Notes: generated by a model not told the origin, from the letters alone. A DNA stretch of 6,193 bases from a virus (IMGVR_UViG_2693429700_000016), one strand, 5' to 3'; numbered from the stretch's first letter, positions 1,588 to 6,094 are shown. Translations and numbers: made by a program.

Positions 1588-1932
1588 ATGCGTGATATGT
1601 ATGAAGTATTGGACCGCTGGGGAGCATGGGCTGCAGCAGACAACAGTGGTGTGGACTGGCAGCCGGTAGCAGCAGGCTTCAAGGGGCTTTTACCTCATGG
1701 CAAAAAGTCACGGATTCAGTGTGATGATGACGAAGGCATTATGATAGACAGTTGTGTGGCTCGGTTGAGAAGGTATAAACCAGAGGAATATGAGCTCATC
1801 ATAGCCCACTTTGTTATTGGTATCTCATTACGCACTATTGCCAAAAAGAGAAGGTGCTCTGATGGCACTATTAGGAAGGAGTTGCAAACCGCAATCGGTT
1901 TTATAGAGGGGGTTGTAAGTATACTTGTGTAA
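1588..1932 (+). CDS. Q: Late-gene antitermination protein Q (short quuD-like family)
   Basis: N-terminus MRDMYEVLDRWGAWAA...AAGFKGLL...CDDDEG...CSDG resembles DLP12 QuuD-type Q proteins from memory. GGAG at 1577-1580 precedes ATG 1588; the ORF track's TTG at 1573 is less likely. Stop TAA 1930-1932. Confidence 0.8.
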   Translation: MRDMYEVLDRWGAWAAADNSGVDWQPVAAGFKGLLPHGKKSRIQCDDDEGIMIDSCVARLRRYKPEEYELIIAHFVIGISLRTIAKKRRCSDGTIRKELQTAIGFIEGVVSILV

Positions 1933-1940
1933 AATAATAA

Positions 1941-1959
1941 AAGGCGGTAGTACCGCCTT
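1941..1959. terminator. Perfect hairpin (AAGGCGGTA / TACCGCCTT) between convergent Q and cassette; likely intrinsic terminator for the minus-strand cassette
   Basis: Inverted repeat 1941-1949 / 1951-1959. On the minus strand it is followed by a U-rich tract (revcomp of 1929-1940 = TTTTATTATTTT). The plus-strand downstream tract is not U-rich. Overlaps the stop codon (1958-1960) of the last cassette gene. Confidence 0.55.
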
Positions 1960-2572
1960 AATGATCGAATCGTTGTATGTTTTCATGGAATCTACAAAAG
2001 TGAATAGATATTTTGAATAGTAAAATGTAGAAACCAACTTGACTTAAAGTTATGGCTTTGCATTTATCATTCAAGAGTTTTTGTAATTCTTCCGTTGGTA
2101 ATTGGTATACATCATCAAGAAAAACGATGCATTCTTCTAAGTTGTCTGATTCAGGAAGATAAAAAATATTAGTAATTAACTGCTTCCTTATAGCATCAAT
2201 TTTGCTATCTATTGAAGTCTTAGAAACTCCGTTGGAGAGAAGAATAGCTTCGAACTTAGATAAACTTACTAACGGAGCAAAGACTGCACGCATTGGCACA
2301 TCACGATTATTACTTGTATCTATATCGCAACTGTTGCTTAATATAATTCCTCGTGTTTTTTTAGTCCCTTTAATTGAATATACTGTAAGCTCCTTAAATA
2401 TATCTCCCTGAAGTGCAGCATTTTTCAGATCATCATGATAATTGGTAAGGTAGTAGTTAGTGTTTTCAGGGAAATCTCTAAGTGCATTTATTAGCCCTTC
2501 TTTTTGAGGAGCTGTTAAATAATATGGGATTTGATCTTTGAATTTCTCGATATCAAAAATGTTATTACTCAT
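1958..2572 (-). CDS. Cassette gene C: hypothetical protein (~204 aa), no recognisable motif
   Basis: Long ORF in strongly AT-rich DNA. ATG at 2572-2570 (alternative GTG at 2575-2573) lies directly after the TAA stop (2578-2576) of gene B, suggesting translational coupling. Ends at the terminator hairpin. Confidence 0.7.
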   Translation of the reverse strand: MSNNIFDIEKFKDQIPYYLTAPQKEGLINALRDFPENTNYYLTNYHDDLKNAALQGDIFKELTVYSIKGTKKTRGIILSNSCDIDTSNNRDVPMRAVFAPLVSLSKFEAILLSNGVSKTSIDSKIDAIRKQLITNIFYLPESDNLEECIVFLDDVYQLPTEELQKLLNDKCKAITLSQVGFYILLFKISIHFCRFHENIQRFDH

Positions 2573-2575
2573 CAC

Positions 2576-2920
2576 TTAATCCAAGTATAAATCCCACAGT
2601 GAAGCATGAACGACTTTATTTATTTCACTGCCTAAAGACACCTGGTTTGTTGATAATTTTTCATAAAAGTTTGTCATCGAGACTGCAAGTCTTTGATCAA
2701 CTGAGATTGTGCTCCCTGCTTTATATGTTTGTGTGATGGAATGAACTGAATCGGTAGTTGAAGACTTATACTCCAAAGCGTGATTTTTGACGATTAAACT
2801 TTGTTGAGGACCATGCTGTTGATTTTGGGCAATGTCTGTTAATGCTGTTATATGCAGACCATATAAAACCAAAGTTAATACTTGAAGTTGAGCTCGATAA
2901 ACATGATGAGACGGATACAT
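2576..2920 (-). CDS. Cassette gene B: small hypothetical protein (114 aa) with hydrophobic N-proximal segment
   Basis: ATG at 2920-2918 preceded on the minus strand by GGTGGT about 7 nt upstream (revcomp of 2921-2935 = AAATGGTGGTATGAT). Residues ~10-30 (AQLQVLTLVLYGLHITALTDIA) are hydrophobic. Stop abuts the start of gene C. Confidence 0.6.
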   Translation of the reverse strand: MYPSHHVYRAQLQVLTLVLYGLHITALTDIAQNQQHGPQQSLIVKNHALEYKSSTTDSVHSITQTYKAGSTISVDQRLAVSMTNFYEKLSTNQVSLGSEINKVVHASLWDLYLD

Positions 2921-2935
2921 ATCATACCACCATTT

Positions 2936-3685
2936 CTATTTGTAGGATGGTTCTAGTTCTTGAATTGTTGACTCTTTAAGGCAACTAAAGAAAGCTAATT
3001 TATTACAGGAGTGAAGATCATCAAGAATTTTTTTGGGTTCGTTTTTAAACTTATCTATTTCATCAGTATTAGTGATTTGCCTAATACTGTCTATGTCTAG
3101 GATTAGTCCTTTTTTATTAAATTCTCCATTATCTGACATGACTAAAGCATGAGATAATATTTGAATTATATTTAGAAATGCGCCTTCATTTTTATCGATT
3201 CTGATATTGATCGGATAATTAGACATAGACTCGCCAGCCATATTTAAGCTGACGTTTAGCTTATCAAATAAATTAGAATCGTCTTCTTTTGGGAAAAAAT
3301 CTACATACTTTAATGAGTAGCGGATGATGTTGTCATTTAAATTTAATTTGTTAAGCTCATTTAATACATGAATGATTTTTTCTCTAAAATGACTCCACCC
3401 TTGATATTTGGTGCTGGTGGATACAACAACACCATGGTCACTTAGTCCAATATAGTACCCTTCGATTTCGAGGCGACTGACAACTGCGTAATGTAATTGT
3501 TCATCTCCCTCACGAACATTTTTAGGTATTTGACTGGGTGGTAAACTAATTACTGGTTTTGTACAACCTAGAGCGTGAAAAAGAAACCCTGGAACTATTT
3601 CCGATATTTGTGTTTCTTTAGAAAAACGCATTTCGAAAGCAGCTTCGATTACTGGTTGTTTTGATAGAGATGTTGGAATGAGCAT
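2936..3685 (-). CDS. Cassette gene A: hypothetical protein (249 aa); N-terminal P-V-I-E-A-A-F-E-M-R-F motif resembles TIGR04255-type proteins of unknown function (recognition from memory, unverified)
   Basis: 750-nt ORF, AT-rich codon usage, ATG at 3685-3683, stop TAG 2938-2936 is 15 nt upstream of gene B start. The motif PVIEAAFEMRF plus later IIRYSLKYVDFF and GLILDIDSI blocks fit my memory of that family. Confidence 0.7.
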   Translation of the reverse strand: MLIPTSLSKQPVIEAAFEMRFSKETQISEIVPGFLFHALGCTKPVISLPPSQIPKNVREGDEQLHYAVVSRLEIEGYYIGLSDHGVVVSTSTKYQGWSHFREKIIHVLNELNKLNLNDNIIRYSLKYVDFFPKEDDSNLFDKLNVSLNMAGESMSNYPINIRIDKNEGAFLNIIQILSHALVMSDNGEFNKKGLILDIDSIRQITNTDEIDKFKNEPKKILDDLHSCNKLAFFSCLKESTIQELEPSYK

Positions 3686-3912
3686 TTAAAACCCATAGTA
3701 TGTTTTATGAGCTGATTGGATTTTGAGCATAGCTACCGCACGAATCTTCGAGGAAGATCCAAACATGTGCCTAATGTCGCATCATGCTCAAGGCGGCATA
3801 AATTTTGTTTACTGAGTATAAGATTAACAACCATTAACTTCCATCAAAAATGCTAACGCGTACGCAAAAACTATTGTATCGTGTTAAGAGTGGTCACTTC
3901 GCCACACAGCTT
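3686..3912. promoter_or_regulatory. Divergent control region: expected site of the cassette promoter (minus) and possibly the phage late promoter/qut (plus); exact elements not resolved
   Basis: Non-coding, compositionally intermediate stretch between the cassette start and the lysis leader. Only weak sigma70-like hexamers found by eye, e.g. TTAACA 3824-3829 with AAAAAT 3846-3851. Positional inference only. Confidence 0.3.
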
Positions 3913-3942
3913 AAACCCGCCGTCGAGCGGGTTTGTCGTTTC
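3913..3942 (+). terminator. Hairpin AAACCCGC-CGTCGA-GCGGGTTT followed by GTCGTTTCT: candidate tR'-like intrinsic terminator or late-leader structure upstream of S
   Basis: 8-bp GC-rich stem (3913-3920 / 3927-3934) with 6-nt loop and U-rich tail on the plus strand. Flanking GGTCACTTCG (3892-3901) recalls the lambda pR'-tR' leader from memory. Confidence 0.4.
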
Positions 3943-4085
3943 TGGACCCGGCTATTTGTTGAGCCTGGTCTATACCGCAGTTATCCATTGGCTCGGCCTC
4001 TTTTACGTTTCCGCTTCTGATTTGCGGTACATGATGTTCCCTCAATTTGCACCTCCTGTATTGGCGAGGTGAGAGATAACTACAA

Positions 4086-4412
4086 ATGCCTCATAACCCA
4101 AATACCTGGCTGGAGTTGGTCCAGAGCTGGTGGCGTGGAGACACACCGCTGGGCGCAGTGATTATGTCGATTGTTATGGCTGGTTTACGTATTGCCTATT
4201 TTGGCGGTGGTGGCGGCTGGAAGCGAAAAACACTCGAAATTCTACTCTGTGGTGCTCTGACGCTGACTTTTGCATCCGCTCTTGAGTATGTCGGATGGCC
4301 TAAATCACTATCTGTTGCCATTGGTGGTGGGGTGGGGCTGATCGGTGTCGATGCTATTCGTGGGGCTGCAATGCGAGTAATCGGTAACAAATTTGGTGGC
4401 TCTAAGGAGTAA
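4086..4412 (+). CDS. S: Holin (class I, lambda S-like three-TMD architecture, but a divergent allele)
   Basis: 108 aa. Three hydrophobic segments (about residues 22-39, 49-69, 75-91). Shares the LR..Y.GG...K and IG.D.I pattern with lambda S from memory. Immediately upstream of R; stop TAA 4410-4412. Confidence 0.8.
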   Translation: MPHNPNTWLELVQSWWRGDTPLGAVIMSIVMAGLRIAYFGGGGGWKRKTLEILLCGALTLTFASALEYVGWPKSLSVAIGGGVGLIGVDAIRGAAMRVIGNKFGGSKE

Positions 4413-5978: not shown

Positions 5979-6069
5979 GTTGAACCTCCTTAATTAATGT
6001 TATTCGAGTGAGGAAGGCATTCTGTCCTTCTATAGTGTCCAGTAAATCAAACAGGAAACTTGTCCAACG

Positions 6070-6094
6070 TGAACCGCCCCGGGTTTCCTGGAGA
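6070..6094 (+). repeat. IS terminal inverted repeat (IRR-like)
   Basis: TGAACCGCCCCGGGTTTCCTGGAGA; partner of 109-133. Confidence 0.75.

Follow-up and report, generated by a model that had tools for sequence, protein, structure and literature searches.

The window analysed here, a stretch of 6,193 nucleotides of viral DNA (IMGVR_UViG_2693429700_000016), is the segment between the antiterminator gene Q and the lysis genes of an E. coli prophage resembling Shigella phages SfII and SfIV. The gene for a short Q protein (1588..1932, plus strand) and the holin gene that opens the lysis operon are separated by a three-gene, AT-rich cargo cassette on the minus strand (1958..3685) and by a gap of 400 bases (3686-4085). 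The gap consists of two parts, a cassette-specific left part and, on the right, a conserved control module at ~3843-3946, beyond which lies the leader of the holin gene. We consider it probable that this module is the late control module of the prophage's short Q, comprising promoter, Q site and terminator. It is an undescribed version of the textbook phage switch, in which Q is predicted to bind and to permit read-through. A first-pass annotation of this DNA had placed a late control region in the gap, far from Q, and had regarded the 400 bp as non-coding. The first proposal is borne out by the conservation of the module, its cognate pairing with Q and its position, with dependence on Q remaining a prediction. 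The second also holds: RefSeq copies of the prophage have no gene annotated within 3686-4085, where the only open reading frames (ORFs) are mechanical ones of 44-63 amino acids.

The Q protein of the window (114 amino acids) is a QuuD-like short antiterminator of Pfam family PF06530 (E=1.2e-44). It is 46% identical to QuuD of K-12 and 25% identical to the 162-residue Q21 of phage 21, whose structures (6p18/6jnx) it matches distantly (E=0.0014), and it is presumed to be the cognate factor of the late module. From 3845 to 4085 the window is 86-91% identical to SfII and SfIV, both of which have different minus-strand cargo after Q. The segment 3859-4071 is ~73% identical to DLP12-like late regions (434B, PA-2, 'Lambda_4C10' and K-12 DLP12), where it sits just upstream of an S21-type holin gene and where the cargo is the porin gene nmpC/lc. 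From this pattern we infer that the shared DNA tracks the type of Q and neither the cargo nor the holin.

The same association is seen in wider samples. A scan of one genome per species gave 26 loci encoding relatives of the window Q (55-93% identity) in many enterobacterial genera, and the module is present in 25/25 of the Q-bearing loci with enough DNA. The 15-mer AACGCGTACGCAAAA from the core of the module occurs in at least 120 IMG/VR contigs, and the whole element in 118 of the 120 retrieved. Among 143 loci with the element, 120 have a window-type Q upstream on the same strand; of the remaining 23, 22 have <2.3 kb of upstream DNA and one has 4 kb with no detectable Q. The core ACGCGTACGC is paired with a window-type Q in 120/120 loci. 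At least 120 contigs contain the DLP12-type core TTACGTACGTAAAAAA, which accompanies a QuuD-type Q in every one of the 97 with a detectable Q (likewise 97/97 for the core written as TACGTACGTA), and core type agrees with Q type in 217/217 cases. The order Q, module, lysis genes on one strand is the same in the 120 and the 97 related loci, and the genes downstream of the module encode holins, endolysins and spanins of several families. Five phages (L175, L258, L219, L251 and L199; L numbers are our locus labels) are free of cargo. In these the element starts 27-72 bp after Q, where lambda and phage 21 have pR' and tR'; a hairpin with a T-run and then lysis genes come next.

Conservation was computed position by position on 108 non-redundant relatives. 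The core of the module, CTAACGCGTACGCAAAAA (3853..3870, plus strand), is a putative Q-binding element (QBE), on the basis of its conservation, its pairing with the Q type and its position, which is that of the QBE in phage 21. Within it, TAACGCGTACGCAAA (3854-3868) is invariant or nearly so (at most 2/108 differ). Of its flanks, the leading C3853 is kept in 77/108 and the fourth A of the tract in 91/108, with further A's to 3870. The core contains two palindromes, ACGCGT (3856-3861) and CGTACG (3859-3864), and also supplies a weak plus-strand -35 hexamer, CTAACG (3853-3858), and a minus-strand -35 hexamer, TTGCGT (3867 down to 3862).

Downstream of the core, TATCGTG (3877..3883, plus strand) most likely serves as the late promoter's -10 element. 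It has the form TAnnnTG, of which T3877, A3878, T3882 and G3883 are invariant and the inner positions free. TAnnnT is present in all relatives. Its presence was a selection criterion for the set of 108, but not for the IMG/VR loci, which were retrieved with the core 15-mer alone and of which 118 of 120 carry the element. A further -10-like hexamer, TATTGT (3872-3877), overlaps it and has the form TAnnnT in 70/108, and TAT at 3872-3874 is moderately conserved. Other conserved positions are an A-tract (3847-3850), A3839, T3843 and A3844. The promoter predicted for the window, CTAACG-18-TATCGT, is weak; that of the cargo-free relatives, TTTACG-16-TATTAT, is a good sigma-70 promoter with TAnnnT as its -10. 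The DLP12 core (TTTACGTACGTAAAAAA) likewise has a spacer of 16 nt, compared with 18 nt in the window. Two other signals were considered in this region and rejected. In PA-2 the homologous GTGGTTACTTCGTCACAC is covered by an annotated CRP site, which by eye matches TGTGA-N6-TCACA poorly, and AAACT and TCTGT, the possible parts of an RpoE-type promoter in the module, are wrongly spaced, at just 7 nt.

Two readings of the transcription start were derived from the sequence. In the first, TAnnnT is the -10 and transcription starts at 3889. The second follows the build of phage 21, with AAAACT (3867-3872) as the -10, a start near 3878, and TAnnnTG as a sigma-dependent pause element where Q loads. 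The Cappable-seq table for E. coli MG1655 lists plus-strand starts at 576081 (score 90), at 576452 (score 1.7, enrichment 4.8) and next at 576907 (PMC4782308, U00096.2), and no other plus-strand start between 576081 and 576907. The K-12 position expected under the first reading, 577229 in U00096.3, had been derived from sequence before the start table was consulted; it is an A exactly 7 nt after TATGCT (L034:5230) and corresponds to A3889 of the window. With the offset from U00096.2 to U00096.3 at the DLP12 late region, which is +777, the listed start 576452 is this same position. As an internal check on the offset, both 576081 and 576452 then fall 7 nt after a TAnnnT hexamer. The whole data set is said to contain 16,359 starts, from which the probability of an exact chance coincidence with a listed start is ~0.2%. 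The table has no plus-strand start at the positions expected under the second reading (576440-576449). Thus, the K-12 start at 577229, the lack of one at the alternative positions and the good promoter of the cargo-free relatives favour the first reading, and A3889 (plus strand) is the predicted start of the late leader by homology.

We think the phage 21-like build unlikely, although several features would suit it. TAnnnTG is the pattern of the phage 21 pause element TAAGCTG, which occurs exactly in L043 and L136. The 10 nt from core to TAnnnT are close to the 12 nt that separate QBE and pause element in phage 21, and GCAAAAACTAT is similar to GCAACACTAT of that phage. A3868 is invariant and T3872 is kept in 90/108, and the covarying outer helix of hairpin P1 (described below) needs an RNA that starts at or before 3884. 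However, besides the K-12 start 7 nt after TAnnnT and the promoter of the cargo-free relatives, this reading faces the problem that AAAAnT is without a usable -35.

The mapped start falls within the nearly invariant TAAGAGTGGT (3885..3894, plus strand; 1.2-2.0 bits per position), which spans -4 to +6. It contains a -10-like hexamer, AAGAGT (3886-3891), at -3 to +3 of the start, itself nearly invariant, with the second A changed in six relatives. AACGAT of lambda has the pattern AAnnnT, as does AAGAGT, and TAAGAGTGGT is a candidate pause or Q-loading element. The same region can form hairpin P1 (3884..3914, plus strand), with an outer helix at 3884-3888/3910-3914 and an inner helix at 3890-3893/3902-3905. 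In P1, 83.6% of cells are paired, compared with 31-45% for slid partners. The pair 3887-3911 is AU in 86 relatives, GC in 4 and UA in 2, with none broken; the covariation score was reached by 0/500 shuffles. Compensatory changes in the outer helix include TTAGG/CCTAA and CTATG/CATAA. This helix could be formed only in RNA arriving from upstream, and it suggests a second start further upstream, read-through RNA or a function at the level of DNA.

The leader is followed by an intrinsic terminator, the analogue of tR' (3913..3943, plus strand), in which AAACCCGC (3913-3920) and GCGGGTTT (3927-3934) enclose the loop CGTCGA and are followed by UUUGUCGUUUCU, the tail GTCGTTTCT extending to 3943. The GC-rich hairpin and U-tail of the first-pass annotation are real. 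The segment was scored as terminator-like by a scan and is part of the minimum-energy fold. A hairpin with a T-run 35-80 nt downstream of TAnnnT is found in 69/108 relatives, versus 13/540 shuffles (2.4%) and 0/108 upstream control segments. The stems of the relatives differ in sequence, and RNAalifold identifies compensatory changes in 4/5 pairs. Because it is positionally conserved relative to shuffles and controls and its pairs change in a compensatory manner, the hairpin is more than a chance structure. RNAalifold recovered only the terminator when applied to the whole leader, the linker being variable in length. The terminator would end a leader of ~50 nt. Seven loci (L010, L049, L111, L136, L025, L026 and L146) are without the usual GC-rich terminator and have in its place a common downstream sequence, AAAATCGATCT...TCAACGATAT.

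A conserved hairpin, a terminator and a weak start of the K-12 homologue in standard culture would also be expected if the module were mainly a small-RNA gene, yielding a Q-independent transcript of ~50 nt like 6S or oop-type phage RNA. This is very improbable. A scan of the whole window against Rfam 15 (E up to 5) gave no match in 3686-4085, and the leader fold is no more stable than those of shuffles (z=-1.2). The strongest conservation lies in the DNA upstream of the start and not in the body of the RNA, and the pairing with the Q type would be left unexplained.

In the family with window-type Q, Q and the module are always separated by cargo: in the 120 loci the interval measures 621-3588 bp (median 1.6 kb). 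The first-pass annotation had reasoned that, should pR' lie in the gap, the foreign cassette separates Q from its target by 1.8 kb. The separation stands, at 1.9 kb from the Q stop (1932) to the core (3853), but it is no accident of one foreign cassette, as cargo of 0.6-3.6 kb is found in 120/120 loci. Separation of Q and module by AT-rich cargo on the minus strand is the norm of the family, and the interval is a standing slot. Its contents (in the window, 1933-3852, and in L001 and L008-L154) amount to 96 distinct gene sets with a GC content of 0.29-0.44, of which 95 are read from the minus strand. The cargo proteins tested (n=10) include Kiwa KwaB (E=1.9e-136), PDC-M53A (the SfII cargo) and an AAA ATPase of the HEC-04/AriA/PtuA kind, whose gene adjoins one that by eye encodes a C5 methyltransferase. 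In this family of prophages the slot has the appearance of a defence hotspot.

The start codons of the cargo lie at a median of 61 nt from the core, a distance that leaves no room for a promoter of their own, and so the module seems to contain a built-in divergent promoter for any cargo that occupies the slot. On the minus strand, the invariant TTGCGT is followed 17 nt on by TAnnnT (TACAAT, TAGAAT and others) in 68/108 relatives, a sharp positional peak compared with 0-14 at adjacent offsets. The window departs from this pattern, with a degenerate ATGGAA at the usual minus-strand -10 position (3839..3844) and a cassette ATG 170 nt from the core.

Several points weigh against the proposed late promoter and leader. 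The plus-strand -35 is poor (3/6), and promoter prediction by a simple consensus scan, one of the approaches named in the first-pass annotation, did not call the late promoter; its sole hit, TTAACA-16-AAAAAT on the plus strand (3824-3851), was rejected as it is not conserved in relatives. The K-12 start is weak (score 1.7, with a threshold of 1.5) and comes from a system with a 46%-identical Q. The 5' arm of the covarying outer helix of P1 (3884-3888; -5 to -1) is upstream of the mapped start and fits a start further upstream, and the U-tract of the window terminator is interrupted. Finally, Rueggeberg is said to have reported in 2015 that the Q-responsive promoter of DLP12 is essDp, said to be RpoE-dependent. 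A study of the lysis module of DLP12 (PMC7918800) refers to Rueggeberg 2013 and 2015 for essDp and a Q-like factor and describes primers as spanning -121 to +650. By primer arithmetic essDp would start near K-12 576,874, close to the 576081/576858 start and ~355 bp upstream of the module, in DNA confined to DLP12-like regions. The strong Cappable-seq start there (score 90; K-12 576,858 = L034 4859) lies 7 nt after TATTAT on the plus strand and just upstream of the start codon of nmpC, which is read from the opposite strand; RNA begun here would extend over 370 nt into the module and terminator.

The essDp location is pertinent to a further alternative, in which the conserved block serves as an outward cargo promoter with an insulating terminator, or as a boundary sequence for module exchange, and Q acts elsewhere, for instance at an essDp-like upstream promoter. 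The minus-strand TTGCGT-17-TAnnnT of 68/108 relatives and the closeness of the cargo start codons to the core fit such a function, as does the strong plus-strand start 370 nt upstream in DLP12, to which published work is said to assign Q responsiveness. We nevertheless judge this quite unlikely. The DLP12 DNA around K-12 576,858-576,874 has no homology to the window, where similarity begins at 3859, and no counterpart in most relatives. The block persists directly after Q in the cargo-free phages, its core type tracks the Q type in all 217 loci, and its footprint, with the plus-strand TAnnnTG, TAAGAGTGGT and the terminator, exceeds what a minus-strand promoter needs. The comparative data favour the module over essDp as the target of Q. 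As to experimental 3' ends and further starts, the supplementary files consulted for the Adams 2021 Term-seq and the SMRT-Cappable-seq papers have no entry at the K-12 module, and a literature search found no paper on QuuD antitermination.

For the late control module we predict the following sequence of events. A weak sigma-70 promoter, with CTAACG (3853-3858) as the -35, an 18-nt spacer and TATCGT (3877-3882) as the -10, would start transcription at about A3889, the position seen in the K-12 homologue. Q would bind the CGTACG/A-tract element between the -35 and the -10, as at the QBE in phage 21 and lambda; this assignment follows from the position of the element, its invariance and its cognate pairing. 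RNA polymerase may be held early, perhaps by AAGAGT within TAAGAGTGGT, and Q would load there. The terminator hairpin at 3913-3943 would stop the ~50-nt leader unless Q has modified the polymerase, and the modified polymerase would read through it and the 140-nt leader beyond into the holin, endolysin and spanin genes. In most relatives the core would double as the -35 (TTGCGT) of the divergent minus-strand cargo promoter, whose -10 is degenerate in the window.

A more speculative proposal, which we regard as doubtful, is that the palindrome acts as a two-way switch. In the lysogen it would serve as the -35 (TTGCGT) of the minus-strand promoter of the defence cargo; Q binding to the same palindrome would shut this promoter and replace sigma region 4 at a late promoter that is without a good -35. 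Under this scheme Q would load onto polymerase at initiation, with TAnnnT as both -10 and loading site and with no separate promoter-proximal pause of the kind found in lambda, 21 and 82.

The first-pass annotation had proposed aligning this DNA with the late regions of lambda, 82 and 21. The module is unrelated to them in sequence, and no similarity was found with the phage 21 late region (L007 1900-2320). In organisation, phage 21 (pR'21, QBE, pause element and terminator; 6P18, 6P1A) is nevertheless close. Its Q belongs to the same Pfam family, and in both systems a conserved element lies between -35 and -10 with TAnnnTG close by, and a terminator within ~50 nt of the start is followed by lysis genes. 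The annotated genome of phage 21 marks pR', the QBE, the pause element TAAGCTG (12 nt after the QBE) and the terminator. The differences are that the element of the window is the palindrome CGTACG with an A-tract, whereas that of phage 21 consists of two direct 8-bp repeats, ATTGAGCA and AATGAGCA; that TAnnnT is a promoter -10, judging by the mapped start of the homologue, whereas it is a downstream pause site in phage 21; and that the phage 21 promoter directly follows Q, with cargo in between in the window. Adjacent ATTGAGCA/AATGAGCA subsites followed by TAAGCTG, as expected of a pR' homologue, are not found in the window. Two single octamers resembling the Q21-type QBE, AATGAGCA (3677-3684) and TTTGAGCA (3722-3729), were rejected as candidates; they are 45 nt apart, within DNA specific to the cassette, and are explained as two start-codon contexts, ATGCTCA, read in reverse complement.

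The pR'-qut-tR' region of lambda, source of the 6S leader, has the same logic and the same place on the map (Q, promoter with Q site, terminated leader, S, R, Rz), but lambda Q is of a family unrelated to the window Q, and the leader is 194 nt long in lambda compared with ~50 nt here. The first-pass annotation had noted a partial resemblance to the lambda leader. The string GGTCACTTCG at 3892-3901 does occur in the lambda 6S leader (L006 861-870), but the resemblance goes no further than the 11-mer TGGTCACTTCG, the sole sequence common to lambda and the module, located at about +73 in lambda and +3 in the window. Comparison of the module with lambda 44,550-45,186 gave this 11-nt identity (E=0.08) and no extended similarity, and no lambda record is among the 40 blastn matches listed of 80. 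Among known systems, K-12 DLP12 (quuD - nmpC - essD), PA-2 (lc) and 434B have the homologous module and a minus-strand porin cargo between it and Q. DLP12 differs in its core (TACGTACGTA), its spacer, its Q and its S21-type holin, and essDp, as located from the published primers, is in DNA absent from the window. The 434B record, from the same annotation series as that of phage 21, includes a DLP12-type late region with no late promoter marked. Lambdoid moron sites (e.g., stx downstream of pR' in Stx phages) and P2/P4 defence hotspots are likewise fixed slots for many unrelated accessory or defence genes. Unlike the moron sites, the slot described here is upstream of the late promoter and on the opposite strand, so that its cargo is not part of the Q-dependent transcript.

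The left part of the gap (3686..~3843, minus strand) is a cassette-specific upstream region, presumed to hold a promoter and 5' leader, and a similarity search with it found nothing beyond identical copies of the prophage. This agrees with the earlier suggestion that the gap carries the cassette's own upstream signals. The best minus-strand promoter candidates score just 8/12: TTGTTA-17-CAAAAT (3830 down to 3802) and TGGAAG-17-TATACT (3843 down to 3815). A 14-codon upstream ORF read from the sequence (3686..3730, minus strand; ATG 3730-3728, stop TAA 3688-3686) abuts the ATG (3685) of the first cassette gene. Both this ORF and the gene begin with ATGCTCA, which accounts for repeated TGAGCAT motifs. 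TGAGC occurs at 3679, 3708 and 3724 on the plus strand and at 3786 on the minus strand; four copies in 131 nt have P<0.001 for that motif, but 29% of shuffles contain a 5-mer with four copies. The 8-nt inverted repeat TTGAGCAT/ATGCTCAA described in the first-pass annotation exists, at 3723-3730/3784-3791 (the right arm having been given as 3783-3790), but is at chance level: at least one perfect 8-nt inverted repeat is found in 60% of dinucleotide shuffles, and in 36% with arms at most 100 nt apart. It was rejected as an operator or RNA helix, as it has no statistical support and the cassette occurs only as near-identical copies, which offer nothing for comparison. The 16-mer GCATAGCTACCGCACG (coding strand CGTGCGGTAGCTATGC; 3727..3742, minus strand) is common to four otherwise different cargos (window, L014, L028 and L109), in each of which it lies upstream of the first gene. 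The last three bases of its coding strand are an ATG, the start codon of a short upstream ORF whose length varies.

The cassette itself (GC content 0.28-0.37) encodes proteins of 205, 114 and 249 amino acids. The last of these, the product of the first gene, is a TIGR04255 protein (E=2.6e-27); the 114- and 205-residue proteins have no family, and PADLOC found no match in the cassette. It was found only in 92 E. coli genomes (at least 99% identity), always whole, and in no phage record. Since it occupies the defence slot, it is a candidate for an undescribed defence system. Directly 3' of the Q stop, a hairpin at 1941-1959 is a good terminator only for the minus strand, at the end of the cassette. 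On the plus strand it has no T-run, so that early transcription beyond Q may extend into the cassette in antisense orientation.

Between the terminator and the holin gene, the leader (3944..4085, plus strand) is 91% identical to SfII and ~73% to DLP12-like regions and includes a ribosome-binding region, GAGGTGAGAG (4066-4075). This pre-holin leader of 140 nt is homologous in the window, L002, L004 and L005 despite different holin families (lambda S type and S21 type), which suggests a recombination joint at the start codon. In L150, L063 and L097 a putative DNA methyltransferase gene (judged by eye; DPPY motif) lies between module and holin, where it would be transcribed late. The holin gene of the window (4086..4412, plus strand; TIGR01594 holin_lambda, E=1.8e-35; PF05106) is the first of the lysis/late operon and is followed by genes for endolysin, Rz/Rz1 and Bor; a DUF968 gene (574-1569) precedes Q. 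Ninety-two complete E. coli genomes contain the segment 1500-4500 with at least 99% identity. Near the ends of the window a 31-nt inverted repeat (109-139 / 6064-6094; 84% complementary) resembles outward-facing terminal repeats of IS3-family insertion sequences (IS), and positions 83 to 1 on the minus strand hold the apparent start of an IS orfA (MTKNTRFSPEVRQRAIRMV...). With IS copies on both sides of the 5.9-kb Q-to-Bor segment, the prophage has probably been rearranged.

To our knowledge, defined Q target sites are known for three Q types only (lambda, 21 and 82). The comparison presented here would provide a precise target consensus for the short QuuD-like Q proteins, which are common in prophages of E. 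coli, Shigella and other enterobacteria, including DLP12 of K-12. It suggests a promoter for the K-12 lysis cassette at 577,229, where the literature has not placed one. In addition, it delimits a slot for cargo, from Q to the late promoter, with at least 96 gene sets, including Kiwa and other defence systems. This slot is a place to seek new defence systems, the TIGR04255 cassette of the window among them.

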